From Candidatus Harrisonbacteria bacterium (GTDB taxonomy: Bacteria > Patescibacteriota > Minisyncoccia > UBA6257 > 02-FULL-45-10c), in contig JACROC010000007.1 in assembly GCA_016214655.1 (NCBI GenBank), positions 130,647-194,646 on the forward strand: a stretch of DNA of 64,000 nucleotides. Direction: 5' to 3'. Below are positions 1,646 through 36,560 of this stretch, piece after piece. The position numbers and the translations under genes are program-made. A model generated the notes under the pieces. The model saw only the letters and a program-made list of their open reading frames with translations, was not told where the DNA came from and ran no database searches. Each line of letters opens with the position of its first letter. The stretch's first letter is position 1.

Positions 1646-3453
1646 TATTCTATATAAATTGTTTCGTCGTCCCAATCTTTTATCTCTTCACCATAACTTG
1701 ATATTTGCTTGAACTCAATCAGTTCCGGCGGCAGTTCGCCCAAGAATCTGGATGGGAGATCGTAAAAACTGATATGAAGATTATATTTGGCGCGGGTCAT
1801 GGCAACGTACATTAGCCGGCGTTCTTCTTCCAGTTCATCGGCTTTCAACATCGACCTCTCGTGCGGCAGTAACCCGTCGTTCGCGCCAACGATAAATATG
1901 TGGTCAAATTCCAGCCCCTTGGCAAGGTGAATGGTCATCAATTTAATTGCATTTTCTTCTAACTTTGGCCGGCCATCTAAGCTGGACATTAAAGCAACTT
2001 GTTCCAGGAATTCGTGAGCGTCCTGGAAGGTGGCCGCAAAATTAATTAATTCTTTAATGTTTTCCTGGCGTTCCTCTGGGTTTTTAAAATTTTTCTCTAA
2101 ATATTCTAAATAATCCGTATTTTCTAAGAAATAATTAATCAATTGGACTAGCGACAATTCATTGCTGAGGCGCGGCAGGTTTTCCAATAGGACCGCGTTT
2201 TTTGACCGGTTGAAATTTTTGGCCAGGCGTTCAATGCTGGCGGCATCATTCGGGTTAAAGGCGTAGCGGAGGCCGGCAATAATATCTTTAATTTCCTTGC
2301 GTGCGTAAAATTTCAATCCCCCGAAAATTTCATAAGGTATCCGGCTTTGGATTAACGTTTGTTCAATGGCGCGCGATTGCGCGTTGGTCCGGTAAAGAAT
2401 AGCGATATTTTTAAGCGATTCCCCGTTTTTCAATATTTCCGAAATTTTTTCCGCAATGCCCCAGGCCTCTTCTTCGTTATTCTGATAAGCTGTCAGATAA
2501 ATCGGCGAACCCTCCTGATTGTTGGTCCAAAGGGCTTTGGGTTTTTGGAATTTGTTATTCTTGATCAATTCAGAGGCGGCGCGGATGATGTTTTTGGTGG
2601 AGCGGTAATTTTCTTCCAGTTTAATAATGGCGGCGTTTTGCCAATCTTTTTCAAAGTTCAGGAAATTCCGGAAATCCGATCCCCTGAATGCGTAAATACT
2701 CTGCGCATCGTCGCCGATAACAAAAAGATTTTTATGTTTTTGCGCCAGCAGTTTTATTAAGAGATACTGGCTGGTATTTACGTCCTGGTATTCATCCACC
2801 AGAATTTGCTGCCAAGAGTTCTGATATTTTTCTAGCATTGCGGGATGAGTCTGGAAAATTTTAACCACTTTCTCAATCAGATCATCAAAATCAAAAGCAT
2901 TGCTTTTTTTAAGCAACTCCCCATATTTTTGGAAAACCGCCAGTATAATCTGTTCATAGCGGTCTCCGGATCCCAGTTCTCCGGCATCCAGAAGCTCATT
3001 TTTTATTTTGGAAATTTTGGCCATTACAGCAAGGGGATTAAATCGATCCTTAGATAGATTCATTTCCTCTAGAATTTTTTTAACCAGACTCAGGGAATCA
3101 TCCTCGTCAAAGATGGTAAAATTTCTCGTTCGTCCGACCAGTTTAGCCTCTTGTTTTAAAATTTGGACACCCAGGGAATGAAAAGTACCGATGAATGGCA
3201 TTCCATTATTCATTATTCCTGATTCATTATTCATAATTCTTGATTTCATTTCTTTCGCCGCCTTATTAGTAAATGTAACCGCAACGATATTTTCTGGTTT
3301 GATTCCGGATTTGAGTAAATATATCAGGCGGCTGGTCAGGGTCCGGGTTTTGCCGGAGCCGGCTCCGGCGGCAATTAAAAGAGGACCATTTCCGTGCGTG
3401 ACGGCTTTTCGCTGTACCTCGTTTAAATCTTTAAATAGATTTTTATCGGACAT
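1645..3453 (-). CDS. UvrD/PcrA/Rep-family ATP-dependent DNA helicase
   Basis: Walker A AAGAGSGKTRTLTSR, DEYQD motif (VDEYQDVN), helicase C-terminal motifs (VAMTRAK). Confidence 0.85.
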   Translation of the reverse strand: MSDKNLFKDLNEVQRKAVTHGNGPLLIAAGAGSGKTRTLTSRLIYLLKSGIKPENIVAVTFTNKAAKEMKSRIMNNESGIMNNGMPFIGTFHSLGVQILKQEAKLVGRTRNFTIFDEDDSLSLVKKILEEMNLSKDRFNPLAVMAKISKIKNELLDAGELGSGDRYEQIILAVFQKYGELLKKSNAFDFDDLIEKVVKIFQTHPAMLEKYQNSWQQILVDEYQDVNTSQYLLIKLLAQKHKNLFVIGDDAQSIYAFRGSDFRNFLNFEKDWQNAAIIKLEENYRSTKNIIRAASELIKNNKFQKPKALWTNNQEGSPIYLTAYQNNEEEAWGIAEKISEILKNGESLKNIAILYRTNAQSRAIEQTLIQSRIPYEIFGGLKFYARKEIKDIIAGLRYAFNPNDAASIERLAKNFNRSKNAVLLENLPRLSNELSLVQLINYFLENTDYLEYLEKNFKNPEERQENIKELINFAATFQDAHEFLEQVALMSSLDGRPKLEENAIKLMTIHLAKGLEFDHIFIVGANDGLLPHERSMLKADELEEERRLMYVAMTRAKYNLHISFYDLPSRFLGELPPELIEFKQISSYGEEIKDWDDETIYIE

Positions 3454-3658
3454 AGTTAAGTTCTAAGCACTAAACTCTAAACAATATTAAAATTCAAAGT
3501 ATCAAAATCTAAAACGTTTTATATTTAATATTTTAGATATTTGGATTTATTTAGGATTTAGATATTAGAGTTTTGGATTTTATAGCATAAAAGGAATTTT
3601 TATGCTATGTTAATGTATTATTACTATTCTAAGCAACCAACTTAATAGGATAAAGATC

Positions 3659-4690
3659 TTGTTACTGGATTTCTTGAAAGATTGGACAACCGCGATGACG
3701 GTTGTTTTTATTGCGGCCATGTCTGTATTTAATGTACTCTTTCTGGCTTACCTTAATCAATCCGGGGGATCGCCGAAAGATTTTTTAAGCAGGTCGCTGG
3801 ATTTTTGGGGCGCCGATTTTTTACAGGAAGTTTCTATTTATTCCGGTTTTGCCTCGGCTGAGGGCATAGGTTCGGTGGATATTGGTTTCGCTCCCGAAGG
3901 AAGAGAGACCAGATTTATTATTGTTGATAGCGCGGCGCTTTTAAATACCAATAATCCGATTAGTAATGTAGTGCCGACCCGTGAGGGCCTGATGATTTAT
4001 AAAGTCCAAAAAGGCGACAATCTTTCCAAGATTGCGGCTAATTTCGGAATTTCTTTAAATACCATTTTATGGGCGAATGAAAATTTGAAATCCCAATTAT
4101 TGCAGGCCGGGCAAGAGATTGTGATTTTGCCAGTGACCGGCGTACTGCACCGGGTTCAGGATGAAGAAACTTTGGAATCCATCTCCAATCAATATAATGT
4201 CCCGATTGAAAGAATTTTAAATGCCAATCCGACTTTGATACCGGCGAAACTTTCAGCCGGATTTACGATTATTATTCCAGATACCCGTCCGATGCGGAGC
4301 AGCCGGTTGGCGGGAGTTTCCAGTTTGCCGAGTATTCCGGGATATTTTTCCATACCGACTACCGGCTGGAATTGGGGGCAGCTGCATAATAATAACGCGG
4401 TGGACATTGCCAATGCCTGCGGTACGCCGATTTACGCGGCGGCCGAAGGTTTGGTGGTGGAGGCAGCCAGCGGCTGGAACGATGGATATGGAAACTATAT
4501 TTTAATTGAGCATCCGAATAATACCCAGACTAAATATGCGCATAATTCTAAAAATTTAGTTGCAGTCGGAGATTATGTGGTAAAAGGAGATTCAATTGCG
4601 ATTATTGGAAATACCGGCTTAACTCACGGACCAACCGGGTGCCATTTACACTTCGAAGTAAAAGGCGCCAGAAATCCCTTTGTTAAGTAA
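3659..4690 (+). CDS. LysM-domain M23 family metallopeptidase (peptidoglycan hydrolase)
   Basis: Two LysM-like segments (YKVQKGDNLSKIAANFGISLNTILWAN; HRVQDEETLESISNQYNVPIERIL). C-terminal M23 signature HLHFEV. N-terminal membrane helix. Start uncertain: TTG at 3659 or ATG at 3692. Confidence 0.75.
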   Translation: MLLDFLKDWTTAMTVVFIAAMSVFNVLFLAYLNQSGGSPKDFLSRSLDFWGADFLQEVSIYSGFASAEGIGSVDIGFAPEGRETRFIIVDSAALLNTNNPISNVVPTREGLMIYKVQKGDNLSKIAANFGISLNTILWANENLKSQLLQAGQEIVILPVTGVLHRVQDEETLESISNQYNVPIERILNANPTLIPAKLSAGFTIIIPDTRPMRSSRLAGVSSLPSIPGYFSIPTTGWNWGQLHNNNAVDIANACGTPIYAAAEGLVVEAASGWNDGYGNYILIEHPNNTQTKYAHNSKNLVAVGDYVVKGDSIAIIGNTGLTHGPTGCHLHFEVKGARNPFVK

Positions 4691-6214: not shown

Positions 6215-6447
6215 CTTGCCCTCCTTTTGTTCTTTTTACAAAGAACTCATCCCTCACTTCTATAGAACCAATCGGTCCTTAATTCTTTATATCCACTTTT
6301 ATAAATAGTGACTTTCTTACTTGGTCAACATATTCACAACTTTTTCCAAATTTATAAAAGTGAGGGATAAATTCTCTGTTTTTAGTTTTAAAAAATGAGC
6401 CCAGGGCCCGTGCATCCTTCCGGATGCACGGGCTCCCGGGCTTACTG

Positions 6448-7245
6448 TTAGCGGCGGTTGCCGCCCTTCTTCTTGCTGCCCGTTCCCGTCTGGGAGGCGG
6501 GAACCGCGGCAGGCACGGCTGGCGCCGGCGTCACGGCAGGCGTCGCGCTCGCGACGCTTTCCTTGAGCTGGTCCGCCGCTCCCGCAGGGAGCATCTGACC
6601 CAGCGTCACCGGTTTCGGACCACTGGCCCGCTCCTCGAGCCAGTCCCGAGGCGTCGCATCCTTCAGCTCGCGGTACAGCTTGCGGAACGACCCCGTGCTG
6701 AGCTGGACCGCCGGGGAGTTCTTCTTGTCGCCCCGGAACCGAACTTCCTTGTCCAGCCGTTCGAGGACGTCTTTCACGGCTCTCGCGTTCAGCCCGTGCT
6801 CGGGCTTGTAGTGGACCGCCGCCGCCGCGGGGATGAACTTCACCGTGGTGCGGATGCGCGAGTTGACGATCTTCATTCGATCGTCCTGGCACTCCTCCTC
6901 GGTCTTGAGGATGAAGGCGTGCTTCAGGGCGATGAGGCCGCGGGAGTACCGGTCCGAGAACTCCTTGTCCCACTGCCGCTTACCCTCTTCCCCGCTCATT
7001 GCGAGGATGAAGCCCACCTTCTGCATGTGCGAGGAGCACTCTCGGGCCTGGTCCGGCGTCCAGACGGAGACCGCCGTGCGCAGCTTGTCCGCTGCCGTGT
7101 CGTTCGCCTCACTGAGTGCGCCGAGCTCGGCTACGGGCTTGTTCTCCCGCTTGGCCTTGGCCAGGGCGCTGTACGCATCCGAGGCCGCCAGCGCGAGGTC
7201 GATCACCGCACGGTACTTCTGTTCCAGCTCCATCATTTTGTCCAT
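6448..7245 (-). CDS. Hypothetical protein in a very GC-rich segment, with an Ala/Pro-rich, Lys-rich C-terminal tail
   Basis: Chosen among many overlapping shadow ORFs in this roughly 66% GC segment because it is the longest frame and has an AAGGAG RBS 8 nt upstream of the ATG. No recognisable domain. Confidence 0.5.
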   Translation of the reverse strand: MDKMMELEQKYRAVIDLALAASDAYSALAKAKRENKPVAELGALSEANDTAADKLRTAVSVWTPDQARECSSHMQKVGFILAMSGEEGKRQWDKEFSDRYSRGLIALKHAFILKTEEECQDDRMKIVNSRIRTTVKFIPAAAAVHYKPEHGLNARAVKDVLERLDKEVRFRGDKKNSPAVQLSTGSFRKLYRELKDATPRDWLEERASGPKPVTLGQMLPAGAADQLKESVASATPAVTPAPAVPAAVPASQTGTGSKKKGGNRR

Positions 7246-7390: not shown

Positions 7391-8071
7391 TTATCGCGGA
7401 AAAGTGGGGAAATTATTAAGTTCCGGCGGCACATTGCCGGCGCTGACCAGACTTACCGTGATGATTCCGCAGCTGCTTTCCAGTGCGGCGTCGATTTTGA
7501 GATATCCGAATTCTAAATTCTTTTCTGAAGGAACCACATTTAATCGGTATTTTACATAAAGCGGATTCCAGACCTCGGTTCTGGAAAAGAAATCCAGGTT
7601 TATGTAGCCAATCGGACTCTTCGGATCTTCGTCTTGGTGCTTGATGAAAAACGGACCATTCTCCGGATATTCCGGGAAAATCGTGAAGCGCTGACAGACT
7701 AATCCTTGAACGGATGCATCCGGCGTTTGCTTGAGATTGAGGCGCTGGAAAAGTTTGGTCAGGCCATCAGGCAACGCCGAGAAAGTGATGCGGAGCGTTG
7801 CACTTGAATTTAAAAGAAAAATTTCTTTTAAGAGGTCGGGATTGTTGGCTTCAGCAGTATGGACTAAGCTAACGGTTTGTGCTGTCGGATGTCCGGGAAT
7901 TCTCAACATGAAATGATCCCGAAGAGCCGGAGTTTCAGCAAAGAGCTTTCCGTAATCCCCGCCTAGGTAGGCGGAAAGTTCGTCCCTTCGGACCGTGGTT
8001 TCCAGGCCGACGCTCAATCCTCCTCCGAGAATGCCGGTGAAGCGAGTCAACTGCTTGACGGTGGTTTTCAC
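7391..8071 (-). CDS. Hypothetical protein, first gene of the GC-anomalous island
   Basis: 226-aa ORF. GTG start with GGAGG 5 nt upstream. No recognisable domain. Confidence 0.5.
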   Translation of the reverse strand: MKTTVKQLTRFTGILGGGLSVGLETTVRRDELSAYLGGDYGKLFAETPALRDHFMLRIPGHPTAQTVSLVHTAEANNPDLLKEIFLLNSSATLRITFSALPDGLTKLFQRLNLKQTPDASVQGLVCQRFTIFPEYPENGPFFIKHQDEDPKSPIGYINLDFFSRTEVWNPLYVKYRLNVVPSEKNLEFGYLKIDAALESSCGIITVSLVSAGNVPPELNNFPTFPR

Positions 8072-8146
8072 ATTTTCCTCCTTTTTACGGATTTTCGAAG
8101 AACTTGAGTCTGGCTATAGTATATAACAAAATTGGTTAATTGTAAA

Positions 8147-8295
8147 GAGCTCACTACCTATCTGTCTACCGGCACCGGAGTCCGTCCCGTCCAGCGCGGG
8201 ACGGCTCCTACGCCTCACCCCGAAAATTTTCGTTTCGCGAAAAACCAATCTTTTCGGGGTTCCGTAGTTGCCGCACGACAGATAGGTAGTTCACC
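8147..8295. repeat. Structured palindromic intergenic element, copy A (multi-hairpin; ends are inverted complements ACTACCTATCTGTC / GACAGATAGGTAGT)
   Basis: About 75% identical to copy B at 33813-33955. Differences between the copies are compensatory inside the hairpins (gtcccg..cgggac versus gccgac..gtcggc). Confidence 0.7.
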
Positions 8296-8334
8296 TTTAA
8301 ATTTGTTTGGGGGTAAGGGTGAATTCCGCTCAAT

Positions 8335-8362
8335 AAAAAATCCGCATACACGTGTATGCGGA
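8335..8362 (-). terminator. Intrinsic terminator of the flotillin-like gene
   Basis: Perfect palindrome tccgcatacacgtgtatgcgga followed, on the minus strand, by a T-run. Confidence 0.65.
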
Positions 8363-8386
8363 ATAGTTAATTACTAAAGTACTAAT

Positions 8387-10213
8387 TTATCCTTGTGCAG
8401 GAGGCTCCTTGTGGCCATTTCCATTCTTTAATCCATTTTGGATAAGACCAGCAAGTAGAACGTTGACGAGAGAGTTTCCCCCATCGCCATTGCCTGTTCC
8501 GCCAGCCATGATGTCCGGCACCAGTTTGATTTTGTTGTCAGCCAGCGCCCGTCCAACTTCCATAATGGCATAATTACTTTGGCCTACGGCATTAGTTTTC
8601 TTTTGGATAACTTCCGCTTCGGCCGTACCGACAGCGGTAGTTTTTTCAGCTTGAGCTTTACCGACAACGGTCAGAACTTCAGCATCAGCTTTAGCGTTAA
8701 CGGTTTTTGACGCTGCTTCACCTTCGGCCTGTTTGACTGCGGCTTGAGCAGTGAACTCGGCGATTGCCACGCTGCGTTCAGCATCAACGACTTTAGCTTG
8801 AGTAGCCGCTTGGGCTTTTGCCTGTTCTAATTCTTTGCGGGTTACCTCTGCGAGTCTTTGAGTTTCGTAAGTAACTTTTTCCTGCTCAGCCAGTTTTCTA
8901 TCGGTAAGTGTTTTCATCAGTTCGGCCGGAGGCACGATATCGCCGATAAGCGTATTCACTGCCCCGACGTTATATTCTTGAAGCGCTTCCGAGATACTCT
9001 TTCTGGCATCTTCCTGCCGTTGTCTTCGCGCTTTTAGGAATTCAATGACATCCGAACTCTGGGCGGCATTCCGGAAATAGTTTCCGATCGTTGGCTCCAG
9101 AACTTGAGTTACCAGATTTGCCACATTACCGAACCGCGCAATCACTAATGGCGCGTCATTCCGGGGAATATGAATTATCTGGCTGACGTCCAGGTTGAAT
9201 GAAAAGCCATCTGAAGACCTGACTGTGATAGTCGAAAGTTTTTCGTCCAGCTTGTGGGATTCGGTTTTGCCGGTTGCCCAGTTAAGGACAACGTTGGCAG
9301 TAGGCACGCACTCCAATTTGTGGGTATAGGGATTAATCGGATATTTCCCTGGATCAAGGGGGTCGGCCCAGACGCCTTTTTGTCCCCTGCTTACCAAGTT
9401 GCCGTGCTTGAATTCTTTGCCGCTGACATCAACGCCTTCTGCGCCGACATAGGCGATTACCACACCGACGTGGGCAATGGGAACCGTAGTCATTTCCTTA
9501 AGTTCCACGGTGGCGAAACGCGGGTTGATGAAATATCGTCCGGCCAGCATGACTTGTTCCTGTAAGCCTTTAAATCCGCCATTATCCAGGAAGGCTTGTC
9601 CGTCCTGGAACATGTTATGATTTTGGATTTCTCCGCCGGCAATCTCGCCGGTCTTAAGCGACTTTCCTTCTTTAGTGGTGACAACTCCGACCATATTATC
9701 GTCGATTTCGAGGACCGATTCTTCGGTCACAGAGAAAAGCGCCGTGTTGATCCGGTATGTCCCCGGAGGGATAACCGTAATTTGCGGACCGCGCTCACCG
9801 CCATTCTGGAGAAACGTTCTGGCATCTTGAAATGAATTACAGTCTACCTTTTTTGCAAGAACGCGACCCGCTGCGAGCGGACGGCCGTCGCTGGATTCAA
9901 CCACGCCAATTTTACCCTCTTGAATAGTGGTAAATTTTTGCAGAGTGACCAGATATTGCCATGGCCACAGCCAAAAGTGTACTCCTGGCGCGAGTGTATC
10001 TGCCTGGAGGCCAGCTTCGCCGTTTAAGGCGACGATAGCTCCATCGGGCAGAGTCCGGTTTTTGCCGATGATTACGAACTTCTTATTCACAACGCCCAAA
10101 GAGTCCTCGGGAATCAATACCACTCCGAATACGCGAAGCACCAATTTATAGCCAAATAAAAGCGCTACGATTGGTAATAGCCACAATAGACGCATTAATG
10201 TCTCTACGTTCAT
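8387..10213 (-). CDS. Flotillin-like SPFH/band-7 domain membrane protein (YqiK-like)
   Basis: N-terminal TM. SPFH-like core. Long Ala/Glu/Lys/Gln-rich coiled-coil segment (AEQEKV...AKAQAATQAKV...) typical of flotillins. AAAGGAGGTG RBS. Confidence 0.7.
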   Translation of the reverse strand: MNVETLMRLLWLLPIVALLFGYKLVLRVFGVVLIPEDSLGVVNKKFVIIGKNRTLPDGAIVALNGEAGLQADTLAPGVHFWLWPWQYLVTLQKFTTIQEGKIGVVESSDGRPLAAGRVLAKKVDCNSFQDARTFLQNGGERGPQITVIPPGTYRINTALFSVTEESVLEIDDNMVGVVTTKEGKSLKTGEIAGGEIQNHNMFQDGQAFLDNGGFKGLQEQVMLAGRYFINPRFATVELKEMTTVPIAHVGVVIAYVGAEGVDVSGKEFKHGNLVSRGQKGVWADPLDPGKYPINPYTHKLECVPTANVVLNWATGKTESHKLDEKLSTITVRSSDGFSFNLDVSQIIHIPRNDAPLVIARFGNVANLVTQVLEPTIGNYFRNAAQSSDVIEFLKARRQRQEDARKSISEALQEYNVGAVNTLIGDIVPPAELMKTLTDRKLAEQEKVTYETQRLAEVTRKELEQAKAQAATQAKVVDAERSVAIAEFTAQAAVKQAEGEAASKTVNAKADAEVLTVVGKAQAEKTTAVGTAEAEVIQKKTNAVGQSNYAIMEVGRALADNKIKLVPDIMAGGTGNGDGGNSLVNVLLAGLIQNGLKNGNGHKEPPAQG

Positions 10214-17274: not shown

Positions 17275-18183
17275 ATGACAGAAATCGAAAAATTATTAAA
17301 AGAATATCTTGATTATCTGGAAATAGAAAAAAATCGTTCGCCGAAGACGCGGGAGAATTATGAGCGTTATCTAAGGGTTTTTATTAACTATTCAAAAGCT
17401 AAAAATGTAGAGGATATTACTACTGAACGGGTTAAAGAGTTTAGGGTGTATCTTGCCAGGCAAGAGGATTTAAAGAAAATTACCCAGACGTATTACGCGA
17501 TTGCTCTCCGGAATTTTTTAAAGTATTTAGTAAAAAATGATTATGATGTTTTGTCGCCGGATAAGATTGAACTCCCGAAGATTCCTAAGCGGCAGATTGA
17601 CATTATTGAGTATGCTGATTTGGAGAGATTTTTAAGCGCGCCGCTGCAAAATACGCTCCGAGGTTTGCGCGACCGCGCTATTTTGGAAACGTTTTTTTCC
17701 ACCGGACTCCGTATTTCCGAGCTTTGCAATCTAGACCGGTATATAAATTTGGACCGAGGGGAGGTATCGGTGCGCGGGAAAGGAGAAAAACTCCGAGTAG
17801 TGTTTTTATCTGACCGGGCGCGGGCGGCTCTTAAAAATTGGCTGGAAAAACGCACTGACACTTTAGAACATTTGTTTGTCAGTTTGTCCAAAAGCTCAAA
17901 GCTAAAAACTCAAAGCTCGCCCAAGGTAATCGGGAAAATTACTCCGCGCGCAGTGCAGCGGCTGGTGGAATTTTATCGCCGCAAAGCCGGCATTGCCAAG
18001 AAGATTACTCCCCACCAGATCCGGCATCAGTTCGCTACTGATTTATTGGTAAATGGCGCCGATCTCCGTTCGGTCCAGGAGCTTCTGGGGCATAGCAATA
18101 TTTCCACCACGCAGATTTATACTCACCTAACCAACAAAGAGCTTCGGGAGGTGCATAAATCGTTCCATGCCCGGAGACGATAG
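17275..18183 (+). CDS. Tyrosine site-specific recombinase, XerC/XerD family
   Basis: N-terminal SAM-like core-binding domain. C-terminal catalytic motifs R...HQFATDLL...LLGHSNISTTQIYTHL with the terminal Tyr. Confidence 0.8.
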   Translation: MTEIEKLLKEYLDYLEIEKNRSPKTRENYERYLRVFINYSKAKNVEDITTERVKEFRVYLARQEDLKKITQTYYAIALRNFLKYLVKNDYDVLSPDKIELPKIPKRQIDIIEYADLERFLSAPLQNTLRGLRDRAILETFFSTGLRISELCNLDRYINLDRGEVSVRGKGEKLRVVFLSDRARAALKNWLEKRTDTLEHLFVSLSKSSKLKTQSSPKVIGKITPRAVQRLVEFYRRKAGIAKKITPHQIRHQFATDLLVNGADLRSVQELLGHSNISTTQIYTHLTNKELREVHKSFHARRR

Positions 18184-30664: not shown

Positions 30665-30667
30665 AAA

Positions 30668-30700
30668 ATTATTGGCCCCTATCAAACGGGGCCTTTTTTG
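30668..30700 (+). terminator. Intrinsic terminator
   Basis: Hairpin ggcccctatcaaacggggcc followed by a T-run. Confidence 0.65.
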
Positions 30701-30714
30701 TTTATAATAGGAAA

Positions 30715-32565
30715 ATGAAGAACAATATTAATAATCTGCTTTATAAAAATATTTTGTGGGCGACTATGACTCTATTGATATTGGCGATAGCCTTTTCTTT
30801 TTTATTCACGCAAAGCAAAGCCCCAACTGAATTAACCATCAGCGCTTTGGCGGAAAAAATTAATAAAGGCGAGGTGGAAAAAATTATTGTCAGCGGCAAT
30901 AATCTGGCTATTGATTTAAAGAACGGAGAAAAAGCAGTAGCTAAAAAAGAAACCGAACTCGGGCTTTCCCAGACTTTAAATAATTACGGCGTTAATTATT
31001 CGGCGCTTCAGGCGGTGGCTTTGGAAGTTAAAGATGAATCCGGATTTCAGTTTTGGGTAGGAATATTGCTTCCCACTATTTTGCCTTTAATAGTTATCGG
31101 CGTAATGTTTTGGCTGATTTTCCGGCAGGCGAAATCCGGAGCGGCGCAGGCGTTCAGTTTTGGCCGCGCTAACATTAAAATGTTCCATTCTTTTAAGGAT
31201 CGCATAACTTTTAAGGATGTCGCCGGACTTAAAGAAGCTAAACAAGAACTGGAAGAGGTGGTGGATTTTTTGAAAAATCCGAAAAAATTTTTGGAAATGG
31301 GCGCCAGGATTCCGCGCGGAGTTTTACTGATGGGCGCGCCTGGAACAGGTAAGACTTTACTCGCACGGGCAGTGGCCGGAGAAGCTAATGTTCCCTTTTT
31401 CCATCTTTCCGCTTCAGAATTTGTGGAGATGTTTGTTGGTGTGGGCGCTTCCAGGACTCGGGATGCTTTTGCAACTGCAAAAAAAGCCGCGCCATCTATC
31501 TTATTTATAGATGAAATTGACGCGGTTGGCAGAGAACGCGGCGCCGGGCTTGGCGGGGGGCATGACGAGCGCGAACAGACTTTAAATCAGATTTTGGTGG
31601 AGATGGATGGTTTTGATCGCGATACTAATGTAATCGTGCTGGCGGCAACTAATCGTCCGGATATTTTAGATCGCGCGCTTCTCCGTCCGGGAAGGTTCGA
31701 TCGGAGAGTATTTTTAGATTTACCAGACATTAAAGACAGAGAAGAGATTCTAAAGCTTCATGCCGAGGAAAAACCGCTTGCTAAAGATGTGGATTTAAAA
31801 AAAGTAGCAGTGCGTACCCCGGGATTTTCCGGCGCTGATTTGGCTAATTTAATGAATGAATCGGCAATTTTGGCGGCTAGGCATAATCATAAATTAGTTG
31901 CACAGGAAGATCTTTATAATTCTATTGAAAAAGTTCTTCTCGGGCCGGAACGGAAAAACCGCGTAATTACGGAAAAAGAAAAAGAAATTACTGCCTATCA
32001 TGAGGCTGGACATGCTTTGGTAGCGGCCAGCTTAAAAGACGCTGACCCGGTTCATAAAGTTTCGATTGTCAGCCGCGGACGCGCCGGCGGTTACACTTTA
32101 AAATTGCCGGTTGAAGAATTGCACCTGCGAAGCCGGACCCAGTTTTTGACTGATATTGCGGTAGCGCTCGGCGGTTTTGTAGCGGAAAAATTTGTTTTCG
32201 GCGATATCAGCACCGGCGCTTCTAATGATATAAAAGAAGCTTCAAAATTAGCCCGGGCTTTAGTGACTCAATATGGGATGAGCGAAGAATTAGGACCGCA
32301 GACTTTCGGTGAGTCGCATGAACTTATCTTTTTAGGCAAGGAATTGGGAGGCGAGAAAAATTATTCGGAAACTGTGGCAACTAAGATTGATGAAGAGGTG
32401 AAGAATTTTATTGACCGGGGGTTTGAGTCGGCGAAAAAAATAATCAGCAGCCGGAAAAAAGTTTTGGATGCGATTGCCAAGACTTTAATAGAAAAAGAAA
32501 CTTTGGAGAGGGAGGAATTTGATAAGTTGGTTGGTGGATTTAAGTTGAAGCCGCTCGCTATATAA
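30715..32565 (+). CDS. ftsH: ATP-dependent zinc metalloprotease FtsH
   Basis: N-terminal TM helices, AAA Walker A GAPGTGKT, second region of homology, zinc-binding HEAGHAL. Confidence 0.9.
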
Positions 32566-32602
32566 TTTTTATCTTTTTTAAAACCAGCCAGCATATTTCT
32601 AT

Positions 32603-32710
32603 GAGCACCGATGTCGCTCCGCTCTAGCTGCGGAGCGCATCTACGCCTCAGCAGAAAAAATCCCGCTGCGCGGGATAACAAGCTTTTTCTGCCTCCGTAG
32701 TTGCTCTACG
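32603..32710. repeat. Structured palindromic intergenic element, shorter copy C (core CTACGCCTC...CCGTAGTT)
   Basis: Shares the outer motifs catctacgcctcagc ... ctccgtagttgctctacg with copies A and B. Internal hairpins cgctccgc..gcggagcg and tcccgctgcgcggga. Confidence 0.55.
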
Positions 32711-32842
32711 AAACATACTGGCTGTTTTTATTTAAAAATTATACAACTCGCTTATATTGTTATTTTAAAAAGCAAAAGCCCCGCCTATGTAAGCGCGGGG
32801 CTGTGAGGAGATAAAGCTCTCCTCGGGCTTTGTTCTACCCTC

Positions 32843-33552: not shown

Positions 33553-33804
33553 ATGTTAAAGTCTCCGGAATTACAAAAATCAAAAAAAGAAAATAAAGGC
33601 GAAAGCGAATTAGAATTTACCAATCAGGCACAGATGGAATTAATGAAGCGGTCATCTTTAAAGTCGCAAGAATGGGTTGAAAAATATGCTAAAGATTTCC
33701 GCGATCTTTATGAGAAAAATAAAGAACAATTTTCAGAAATTTATGATCGTGACCCGGAAGAATTATACGTGCTTTTGAATTTTATCCTTACTAGTAAACA
33801 ATAA
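33553..33804 (+). CDS. Small hypothetical charged protein (83 aa)
   Basis: ORF beginning MLKSPELQKSKKENKG immediately after the tRNA. The longer table ORF overlaps the tRNA, so it is trimmed. Confidence 0.35.
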   Translation: MLKSPELQKSKKENKGESELEFTNQAQMELMKRSSLKSQEWVEKYAKDFRDLYEKNKEQFSEIYDRDPEELYVLLNFILTSKQ

Positions 33805-33812
33805 ATTTTGCG

Positions 33813-33955
33813 TTCGCTACCTATTTGCCTACCGGTACCGGCGTTCGCCGACTCCTGCGGTCGGCGTCGCCTACGCCTCGCCGCGATTTTTTGCTTCGCA
33901 AAACCAAGCAAATCGCGGCTCCGTAGTTACCGCACGACAGACAGGTAGCTCACTT
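33813..33955. repeat. Structured palindromic intergenic element, copy B
   Basis: Homologous to copy A (8147-8295) along its full length with compensatory substitutions in the hairpins. Ends are inverted complements GCTACCTATTTGCCTACCGG / CCGCACGACAGACAGGTAGC. Confidence 0.7.
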
Positions 33956-34138
33956 GTTGTATGATAACCAAAAATTCTGTGAGGCTGATTCGGGCTGGCG
34001 GTGGGATCAATTTAGCTCCCTTTAGGGAGCTTTATAAATATAGGCGTTCAGCCGAAGAGAGTTTTTGGTTTTATTGACTTTGCAGTCGTTTTTAAATAAA
34101 GTTTGTTGGTAAATTGAAAACTAGAAAAAGAATAGTTT

Positions 34139-35746: not shown

Positions 35747-35819
35747 GGGCGCTTAACTCAGTGGCCAGAGTGCTTCCTTTACACGGAAGAAGTCGGGGGT
35801 TCAAATCCCTCAGCGCCCA
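35747..35819 (+). tRNA. tRNA-Val (anticodon UAC), no encoded CCA
   Basis: Manual fold: acceptor gggcgct/agcgccc, D-stem actc/gagt, anticodon stem cttcc/ggaag with loop ttTACac, T-stem ggggg/ccctc, discriminator a then cag. Confidence 0.7.
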
Positions 35820-35879
35820 CAGTGTAAATTTTGCACCAAAACGAACCCGTATGTTATTATTAACATAAGGTATTATTTT

Positions 35880-36560
35880 GTGTTTCGTTTTATGAAATTT
35901 GAGGAAAAGAAATTAGCAAAAGAATTGCGTACCAGAGGAGATTCCATTAAGGAGATAGCTAAAAAATTAGCAGTTTCAAAAAGCTCTGTAAGTTTATGGG
36001 TGCGTGATATTCAATTGACTAAAGCTCAAAAACAAATCTTGTCTGAAAAAGGAGTTAGAAAAGAAATTATAGAAAAGAGAAGGGTAACCCGCTTAATAAA
36101 TGAATCTATTCGCAGACGCGTCATTATTGATAGCGCTAAACAGGATATTTCGGGGTTATCTAAATTAGAGTTATTACTTATCGGATCGGCATTGTATTGG
36201 GCCGAGGGAAGTAAGAGAAGCAAGGGAACTGTAATATTGTCTAATGGCGACCCCCTAATGATCAAATTGATGATGAGATTCTTTAGAGAAAATTGTGGGG
36301 TTCCAGAAAGTAAGTTTAGAGGATATATTCATATTCATCCTCATTTAGATTTTAAAAAAGCAGAAATTTATTGGGCAGATATTTCTGGGATTCCACTAAA
36401 TCAATTTTATAAAACTTATCGTAAACCAAATATATCTAGCAAAAATAAGAAAGATACGCTCCCATTCGGAACCTTTGATATCACAATTTGTGATACTGTT
36501 TTGTTGCTTAAAATCAAGGGCTGGATAGAAAAACTTAGTGAGATTGCCAAATTAGATTGA
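35880..36560 (+). CDS. HTH-domain protein, possibly with a degenerate homing-endonuclease-like C-terminal region
   Basis: N-terminal HTH (IKEIAKKLAVSKSSVSLWVRD). Segment LLIGSALYWAEGSK faintly resembles a LAGLIDADG block; that part is speculative. Confidence 0.35.
   Translation: MFRFMKFEEKKLAKELRTRGDSIKEIAKKLAVSKSSVSLWVRDIQLTKAQKQILSEKGVRKEIIEKRRVTRLINESIRRRVIIDSAKQDISGLSKLELLLIGSALYWAEGSKRSKGTVILSNGDPLMIKLMMRFFRENCGVPESKFRGYIHIHPHLDFKKAEIYWADISGIPLNQFYKTYRKPNISSKNKKDTLPFGTFDITICDTVLLLKIKGWIEKLSEIAKLD

Follow-up and report, generated by a model that had tools for sequence, protein, structure and literature searches.

The stretch analysed here (the window; 64,000 nucleotides of Candidatus Harrisonbacteria DNA) carries FtsH, GyrA, PNPase and NusA-like genes as well as scattered tRNAs, and its FtsH is 100% identical to the FtsH of a Candidatus Harrisonbacteria MAG, which places the host among the Patescibacteria (Candidate Phyla Radiation). 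Three copies of an intergenic repeat lie among these housekeeping genes, 1–25 kb apart and not arrayed. The GC content of the element is 51–59%, that of the genome about 42%. The original prediction had described a structured repeat in two copies, A and B; both are real and align end to end as claimed (82% column identity), but a third copy, C, was missed. The termini of copy A, ACTACCTATCTGTC and GACAGATAGGTAGT, are perfect 14-nt inverted complements, as had been stated. The features are listed below; the parts of copy A are given in plus-strand coordinates, the strand that probably folds being the minus strand, and bit scores refer to the covariance model introduced further on.

8118–8146, minus strand: predicted sigma-70-like promoter (TTTACA-17-TATACT) for the gene at 7391–8071 (minus strand), directly after copy A in the folding orientation
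8150–8295 (8147–8295 in the widest reading), minus strand: copy A, whole element, 163.4 bits
8150–8154: flank CTCAC of copy A
8153–8166: 5' arm of stem P1 of copy A, ACTACCTATCTGTC
8167–8169: internal loop TAC of copy A
8170–8174: 5' strand of stem P2 of copy A, CGGCA
8176–8208: hairpin P3 of copy A, loop TCCAG
8209–8266: domain P4 of copy A, with TACG/CGTA, the internal loop CCTC/TC and a long hairpin with the bulge ACCAATC
8269–8273: 3' strand of P2 of copy A, TGCCG
8274–8276: loop CAC of copy A
8277–8290: 3' arm of P1 of copy A, GACAGATAGGTAGT
8290–8294: flank TTCAC of copy A
8296–8308, minus strand: T-rich tail 3' of copy A, TTTAAATTTGTTT, a member of the semi-conserved CTCRC-TT-N-TTGTT motif
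8341–8362, minus strand: intrinsic terminator of the SPFH/Band_7 gene (8387–10213, minus strand), upstream of copy A in the folding orientation and not part of the element
32554–32586, plus strand: left direct repeat of copy C, CTCGCTATATAATTTTTATCTTTTTTAAAACCA, about 30 nt and imperfect; a candidate target duplication that overlaps the FtsH end
32580–32729, minus strand: copy C, 100.9 bits, E = 2e-26 with the covariance model from other copies
32580–32599 paired with 32710–32729: P1 of copy C
32603–32607 (GAGCA) paired with 32702–32706 (TGCTC): P2 of copy C
32747–32775, plus strand: right direct repeat of copy C, CTCGCTTATATTGTTATTTTAAAAAGCA
33813–33953 (to 33955 in the widest reading), minus strand: copy B, 162.4 bits
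33813–33817 (TTCGC) and 33949–33953 (CTCAC): flanks of copy B
33816–33829 paired with 33936–33949: P1 of copy B
33833–33837 (CGGTA) paired with 33928–33932 (TACCG): P2 of copy B

Copy B begins 9 nt after the stop codon (33802–33804) of a small plus-strand ORF and copy C 15 nt after that of FtsH (32563–32565). Copy C belongs to a diverged subfamily and is without CTCRC flanks. All three are more stably folded than shuffled sequence, with z = -10.0 for copy A and -5.6 for copy B (none of 200 shuffles as stable) and z = -7.9 on the plus and -8.1 on the minus strand for copy C. The conserved end motifs occur two to three times in the window, compared with 0.00–0.02 expected occurrences, and scoring of the whole window with all filters off returned only copies A, B and C, their reverse-strand echoes and matches of at most 15 bits, judged too short for copies. 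The proposal that both A and B sit beside GC-anomalous islets was only weakly true: an islet of 66–69% GC lies about 950 nt from copy A, but the 400-nt windows neighbouring copy B have 34–51% GC. The islet (6400–7200), which is the only real one near a copy, corresponds to an ORF at 6448–7245 (minus strand, 265 aa), and neither this ORF nor its neighbour at 7391–8071 (minus strand) has a Pfam or NCBIfam match. Elsewhere in the window, an ORF directly after tRNA-Val (35747–35820), at 35880–36560 (plus strand, 226 aa), has an N-terminal helix-turn-helix (HTH_23, with a weak match to the helix-turn-helix of IS630 transposases) and an unmatched C-terminal part.

The repeat belongs to a family of 22 copies, i.e. 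the three in the window and 19 further ones (E <= 5e-30 with covariance model R1) from two Candidatus Harrisonbacteria MAGs and from groundwater and sediment metagenome contigs, so that the concern that A and B might have no relatives does not apply. A scan of a genome collection for the 3' junction motif identified true copies in the Harrisonbacteria MAGs L003 and L004 and two chance matches inside unrelated sequence. The metagenomes yielded 19 loci with a two-part junction pattern; 15 of them contain the element and, as L013 repeats L005 and L022 repeats L004, give 13 new sequences. A covariance model built from 17 copies then recovered copy C in the window, a second copy in L003, one in L028 and two in L061 (L061a and L061b). 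The pattern matches L001, L002, L006, L010, L018 and L021 are due to chance and represent ordinary non-repeat sequence without the fold of the element; nothing was found when L006, L010, L018 and L021 were scanned with the covariance model. The phage, plasmid and viral collections contain no copy, all 28 viral pattern matches being chance matches and none matching the model. No Rfam family corresponds to the element: at the gathering thresholds of Rfam 15 the whole window contains five tRNAs only, and permissive scans (E <= 10) of 8050–8400 and 33700–34100 returned only matches far below threshold, which are unrelated families or a neighbouring terminator. Nor is the element described in the literature searched for repeats and non-coding RNA motifs of the Candidate Phyla Radiation (CPR). 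Hence, this intergenic repeat family of about 150 bases in Candidatus Harrisonbacteria genomes is apparently previously undescribed, and it is so far restricted to Candidatus Harrisonbacteria and close relatives.

All copies share a common fold with a core of about 145 nt, a three-way junction in which a closing stem (P1), a 3x3 internal loop and a second stem (P2) lead to two hairpin domains, P3 and P4. On the plus strand of the window, P1 comprises 14–21 bp, the conserved internal loop between P1 and P2 reads TAC/CAC, and the 5-bp stem P2 is CGGCA/TGCCG with the variants CGGTA/TACCG, GAGCA/TGCTC and TAGCA/TGCTA. The P3 hairpin has the loop TCCWGCG, and the P4 domain combines TACG/CGTA with an asymmetric CCTC/TC internal loop, the P4b stem, the bulge ACCRAKC, which is conserved, and an apical hairpin, which varies. 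The base-pair-preserving differences between copies A and B that had been pointed out, gtcccg/cgggac versus gccgac/gtcggc and ccccgaaaa/ttttcgggg versus cgcgattt/aaatcgcg, are both borne out and fall into P3 and P4b, respectively, and P2 covaries as well (CGGCA/TGCCG in A versus CGGTA/TACCG in B). In the 22-copy alignment, which was fitted to the model and leans towards structure, standard pairs fill 96.3% of the pair cells, both-sided changes are seen in 29 of 42 pairs and the covariation score is 0.623, versus 0.164 for shuffles, none of 500 of which reaches the observed value; slid controls, with the partners shifted by one to three columns, give at most 0.131. The covarying stems are P1 (8 of 12 pairs), P2, P3 and P4b. 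The outer half of P1 varies from copy to copy (GCTACC, CCTGCC, TTTTGTTT, TAAAGC, CATACC, GATCTGC and AACCAGCC), with complementarity kept throughout. An independent analysis of 17 copies with MAFFT and RNAalifold gave identical helices, 26 of the 42 pairs covarying. The suggestion of selection on RNA or DNA secondary structure, made from two copies, holds in this larger alignment.

The bases of the junction, the internal loops and the bulge are invariant in the 17-copy alignment, an invariance that is partly imposed by the search patterns used to find the copies. The copy in L028 and the two in L061, which were found by the model in FtsH-anchored contigs and with no role for the patterns, deviate at a few of the otherwise invariant positions. 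Junction and loop bases are nearly invariant across the family. The fold is branched and no U-run directly follows the closing stem in the main subfamily, so that the element is truly structured in its own right, as opposed to a terminator pair. The types of P1, P3 and P4b combine differently among the copies. For instance, L061a (1624–1770) and L061b (3654–3800) have P3 and P4b types that are common to both and to L009, and L061a is orthologous in position to the copy in L023 (9899–10043), yet the stems of these two differ. This reassortment of stems suggests either exchange between the copies in a genome or repeated insertion at hot spots.

The original prediction was right about the fold but missed that the opposite strand forms it better. 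As aligned on the plus strand, mismatches of the A.C or C.A kind occupy 37 cells in 15 pair columns, compared with five G.T cells in five columns. Since A.C cells become G.U pairs on the reverse complement, the latter is probably the folding strand. At two P1 positions, for instance, U-A alternates with C.A on the plus strand and thus A-U with G.U on the opposite strand, and with wobble pairs counted, pairing rises from 94.6% as aligned to 98.0% for the reverse complement. G makes up 34% of the latter, a G-rich strand, and purines predominate in its conserved loops GUG/GUA, GA/GAGG and CGCWGGA. The minimum free energy is also lower on the reverse complement in 20 of 20 copies, by a mean of 10.5 kcal/mol; however, this gap is discounted as strand evidence because shuffled sequences show an equal offset and the z-scores are equal, and only the position-specific count of A.C versus G.U cells is retained. 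With moderate confidence, the asymmetry of the mismatches indicates that the complement of the window's plus strand is the strand under selection.

The surroundings of the copies are not random with respect to transcription units. Read in the plus orientation, 11 of the 17 main-family copies are preceded by a same-strand ORF that ends 0–12 nt away, and L061b begins 9 nt after FtsH, as copy C does at 15 nt. The next gene starts only 25–28 nt after the element in L009 and L012, so these copies must be transcribed in the plus orientation. Copy A and the copy shared in position by L023 and L061a are located between a terminator and the next promoter of opposite-strand genes; in the case of copy A, this follows from the terminator of the SPFH/Band_7 gene on one side and the predicted promoter on the other. 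In L028, the copy is inserted between tRNA-Ile, which follows after 6 nt, and the -10 box of this gene, and it therefore belongs to the leader of the pre-tRNA, in the folding orientation. These contexts imply co-transcription in the plus orientation for copies abutting stop codons and in the opposite orientation for the copy in the tRNA-Ile leader. About ten copies have an intrinsic terminator 15–40 nt upstream, read in the folding orientation; these terminators all differ in sequence and are separate from the element. Terminator scans matched only such separate neighbouring hairpins and one inner hairpin of copy C. Directly after P1, main-subfamily copies have CTCRC and no U-run in either orientation.

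No neighbouring gene family recurs, the flanking genes differing at every site, and no promoter or terminator is consistent among the copies. An outward extended -10 promoter in the tail was not adopted, the TGnTAnnnT box being present in 5 of 20 tails. A link between orientation and replication strand was likewise ruled out: the GC skew of the element strand is positive in 9 and negative in 11 of 20 cases and tracks the local gene strand.

A second conserved structured element, of about 110 nt, is present 15–25 nt downstream of copy B (33966–34078, plus strand) and of the copy in L008 (1817–1921, plus strand). Its closing stem, AACCAAAAATTCT/AGAGTTTTTGGTT, shows a compensated change from A-T to G-C in L008, and its inner hairpin differs in sequence. 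It occurs once in the window and matches no Rfam family; as the flanking genes differ between the window and L008, it may be a small RNA gene.

Direct repeats of 5 nt, with the sequence CTCRC or a near variant such as TTCGC, flank most copies of the main subfamily but are missing from copy C, L003b, L028 and L061b. In most of them a T-rich tail, TT-N-TTGTT, follows CTCRC on the 3' side of P1 to give the semi-conserved motif CTCRC-TT-N-TTGTT. CTCRC-TT-TTGTT as a general genomic signal or target was ruled out, with three occurrences in the window compared with seven expected. On the question of target duplications, long flanking direct repeats are significant at two independent sites, but the rest of the 20 copies tested show no clear duplication. 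In L023, a 21-nt repeat flanks the copy and consists of the 3' half of the upstream terminator together with its T-run; this same 21-nt repeat is readable by eye around L061a, but was not scored there. The CTCRC motifs of L023 lie inside this 21-nt duplication, and hence CTCRC may be part of the element. At the second site, the imperfect repeat of about 30 nt around copy C has a local alignment score of 14, versus a shuffle mean of 8.1, and a fraction of 0.01 of the shuffles reach 14; in L023, FtsH ends as in the window with no element after it. The long repeats at these two sites are unrelated in sequence to each other. A long target duplication of variable length is unusual for MITEs of the DDE type.

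A syntenic block comprising S1, gene X, FtsH, a 170-aa gene, tRNA-Ile and a small ORF is common to the window, L023, L024, L025–L028 and L057–L061, and four different sites within it are filled in some relatives and empty in others:

Spacer between gene X and FtsH: filled in L023 and L061; empty in the window, which has a terminator only (30665–30714)
After the FtsH stop codon: filled in the window (copy C) and in L061 (different subfamily); empty in L023 and L028; an unrelated 180-nt palindrome in L024
tRNA-Ile leader: filled in L028; truly empty in the window, L024 and L057 (-10 box, 9 nt, tRNA); a 24-nt remnant in L061
After the small ORF: filled in the window (copy B); not filled in L028

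The 24-nt sequence in L061 (4215–4238; AGGAAGATAGGCAGATCAGAAAAA) lies between the tRNA-Ile promoter and the tRNA and corresponds by homology to the P1 3' arm of the full copy that L028 has at this site. Since the empty sites in the window, L024 and L057 are without these 24 nt, the L061 sequence is a remnant, and derivation of the P1 arms from the target, considered for the L028/L061 pair, was ruled out. Short direct repeats in L028 (AGAAGAT/AGAAAGAT) could have mediated the deletion that formed the remnant. In L008 (~1638–1653), an inverted fragment of the element, ctgtcgtgcggcaa, is found in truncated form a few bases upstream of the complete copy and is probably what is left of a previous insertion there. 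No copy is present in the FtsH-anchored contigs of relatives (L024–L027 and L057–L060; about 152 kb), several of them loci near-identical in gene content. An orthologue in L025 of the gene downstream of the SPFH gene, sought as an empty site for copy A, turned out not to be orthologous. Copies have thus been gained, lost and degraded in the way of a mobile repeat, which is at odds with an RNA gene conserved by vertical descent.

Other palindromic repeats were observed in these relatives, at sites of the type that the element uses. The 180-nt palindrome of L024 (5101–5281; z = -7.7) lies right after the FtsH stop codon, and an unrelated 100-nt inverted repeat (3149–3249) is located in the spacer between gene X and FtsH of the same contig. 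L023 carries an unrelated 150-nt element with 21-bp terminal repeats (2058–2205) in a spacer that is occupied by the present element in L012 and is empty in the window. Intergenic palindromic repeats of several families seem to be present in these genomes.

The original prediction proposed a candidate non-coding RNA or MITE-like element, and it is the second, mobile option that the evidence favours, because occupancy differs at orthologous sites. We consider the element to be, more likely than not, a structure-dependent, non-autonomous mobile intergenic repeat of Harrisonbacteria. A single strand would fold into the three-way junction, and its near-invariant junction and loop bases would most likely form the surface recognised by a mobilising protein encoded in trans, which may act on a single-stranded intermediate, either ssDNA or RNA. 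The stems would need only to pair and could drift and covary. Insertion would take place at the ends of transcription units, directly behind a stop codon or an intrinsic terminator, with one case in a tRNA leader, and inserted copies would be carried passively in transcripts of either polarity and eventually be deleted. The fold would serve the element's own propagation, with the reverse-complement strand as the presumed active strand.

Several observations count against a mobile repeat. The ORFs scanned in the window include no transposase, reverse transcriptase or integron integrase, the only recombinase being a XerC/XerD-like protein, and no Y1_Tnp match was found among the ORFs scanned in these 64 kb, the contig as a whole being at least 200 kb long. 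No longer or autonomous element with the same ends was found in the window or in the CPR loci analysed. The copies within the genome are old and diverged, copy C being much less than the 82% identical that A and B are, which fits maintained, functional copies better than a recent burst. The orientation bias towards stop codons argues against a purely selfish element without target or strand rules, and we also count against mobility that clear target duplications are found at only two sites of 20 copies, that the CTCRC repeat is missing from the diverged copies and that the best-folding strand is antisense to the upstream gene.

As the main alternative, it is conceivable, if unlikely, that the element is a host-functional RNA module that acts within transcripts, for instance by stabilising 3' ends, providing a processing site or serving as a decoy for a binding protein, and that has spread or been exapted from a mobile ancestor and binds a host protein through its purine-rich loops. 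An invariant junction, internal loops and bulge combined with covarying stems is the conservation pattern of a folded RNA, the folding strand is G-rich with purine-rich loops, and diverged copies within a genome all still fold. The non-random position relative to the ends of same-strand genes (0–12 nt, 11 of 17) points in the same direction, as do the L028 copy, which must be transcribed in the folding orientation, and copy B and the L008 copy, which differ by compensated changes upstream of one conserved structured element. However, co-transcription with the neighbouring gene would in most copies yield the strand with the A.C mismatches and not the better-folding one, and the 25–28 nt between the element and the next gene in L009 and L012 leave no room for a promoter of its own on the folding strand. 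Also, close relatives differ in occupancy, only a remnant is left of one copy, the neighbouring genes are unrelated in function, and promoters and terminators are inconsistent, including the TGnTAnnnT box with its 5 of 20 tails.

A variant of mobility in which the element moves at the RNA level, as a bacterial counterpart of a SINE or retrozyme, appears very unlikely. The conserved, purine-rich junction would then be a new self-processing ribozyme or a fold recognised by a reverse transcriptase, target-primed insertion would leave the long variable duplications (21 and about 30 nt), and the stem mosaics would stem from template switching.

A folded single-stranded DNA recombination site, comparable to the attC sites of integrons or to phage attP sites in folded form and used by a tyrosine recombinase such as the Xer-like protein of the window, seems highly improbable. 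The architecture is similar in that an unpaired spacer in the centre separates the basal stem from a second stem and that the tip is variable and, in attC sites, sometimes branched; the element is found directly 3' of ORFs, its better-folding strand is the bottom strand relative to the upstream ORF, and structure is kept while sequence varies, as in attC sites. A candidate tyrosine recombinase is encoded at 17275–18183 (plus strand, 302 aa) and is the only recombinase among the window ORFs scanned. But it scores as XerC/XerD, albeit below the XerC and XerD equivalog cut-offs, and reaches 123 bits with the integron-integrase model, the cut-off of which is 265. No RYYYAAC or GTTRRRY core sites and no conserved AAC/GTT at the base of P1 are present; P1, with its 14–21 bp and variable outer sequence, is much longer than the basal stem of attC; the copies are scattered, follow housekeeping genes such as FtsH and form no cassette arrays; and the two long flanking repeats are unrelated, hence there is no common att core. 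Finally, that the repeat is no distinct entity, and that convergent terminators overlap or GC-rich intergenic DNA happens to form palindromes, is refuted: ordinary terminator hairpins do accompany about ten copies and the GC content does exceed that of the surroundings, but the branched fold and the invariant junction bases are common to 22 homologous copies, the main subfamily is without the U-run in either orientation, the neighbouring terminators differ in sequence and are separate, and pattern matches are far above chance.

Among known systems, the non-autonomous mobile repeat that we favour appears closest in kind to the bcr1 repeats, the best match, and to REPINs. The bcr1 repeat of the Bacillus cereus group is an intergenic repeat of about 155 bp, the distribution of which is not conserved between close relatives; its predicted 'cruciform-like' fold, in which a closing stem bears two independent stem-loops, is maintained through compensatory changes, and it is flanked by 5-bp direct repeats with the fixed sequence TTTAT and has no transposase of its own (PMC3184786). 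The Harrisonbacteria element resembles it in its length of about 150 bp, the stem with two stem-loops, the compensatory changes, the patchy distribution and, in the main subfamily, the 5-bp repeats, a likeness judged from the description of bcr1 only and denoting a functional class and not a homology family. In contrast, the host phylum of bcr1 is unrelated to Harrisonbacteria, the repeat is TTTAT instead of the CTCRC seen here in the main subfamily only, the Harrisonbacteria element has a strongly conserved junction and a variable terminal stem as well as two insertions with duplications of 21–30 nt, and transcription of the repeat, a trait of bcr1, is implied for the present element by context.

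REPINs are doublets of REP sequences that form hairpins and are mobilised by RAYT transposases (Bertels and Rainey 2011, PMC3116915). Their hairpins are predicted to form 'in ssDNA or mRNA', compensatory changes are common, diverged copies persist and solo remnants occur (PMC3116915). The element shares with them that it is a short non-autonomous intergenic repeat with compensated hairpins, diverged copies within a genome and solo remnants. However, a REPIN is one long hairpin made of symmetric, conserved REP 16-mers and a variable spacer, whereas the Harrisonbacteria element is an asymmetric three-way junction with the most conserved part in the centre and the least conserved at the ends; it has no conserved tetranucleotide of the GTAG type, and no RAYT was found among the ORFs scanned in these 64 kb of the genome. 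With classical bacterial MITEs such as the Correia/nemis, RUP and ERIC elements it shares a size of 100–170 bp, terminal inverted repeats, intergenic insertion at gene ends, probable co-transcription with neighbours and possible effects on neighbouring transcripts. The terminal repeats of MITEs are conserved in sequence because a DDE transposase binds duplex DNA, and their target duplication is short and fixed. In the Harrisonbacteria element, by contrast, conservation is found in the internal junction, the outer arms change in a covarying manner and the strand asymmetry of the mismatches points to a single-stranded form; a P1 outer half that differs among copies does not fit a classical MITE.

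The genomes of the Candidate Phyla Radiation are small and tightly packed and, to our knowledge, their non-coding content is almost unexplored. The family described here stands out by its unusually clean covariation and its conserved branched core, and it is new with respect to Rfam, the phage, plasmid and viral collections and the literature searched. The covariance model is ready for use in annotating Harrisonbacteria genomes, in which the element marks insertion hot spots at gene ends. The conflict between the transcribed and the better-folding strand poses a concrete, testable puzzle, and if a partner enzyme were found by co-occurrence, the family would offer a tractable case of mobilisation that is guided by structure and not by sequence.
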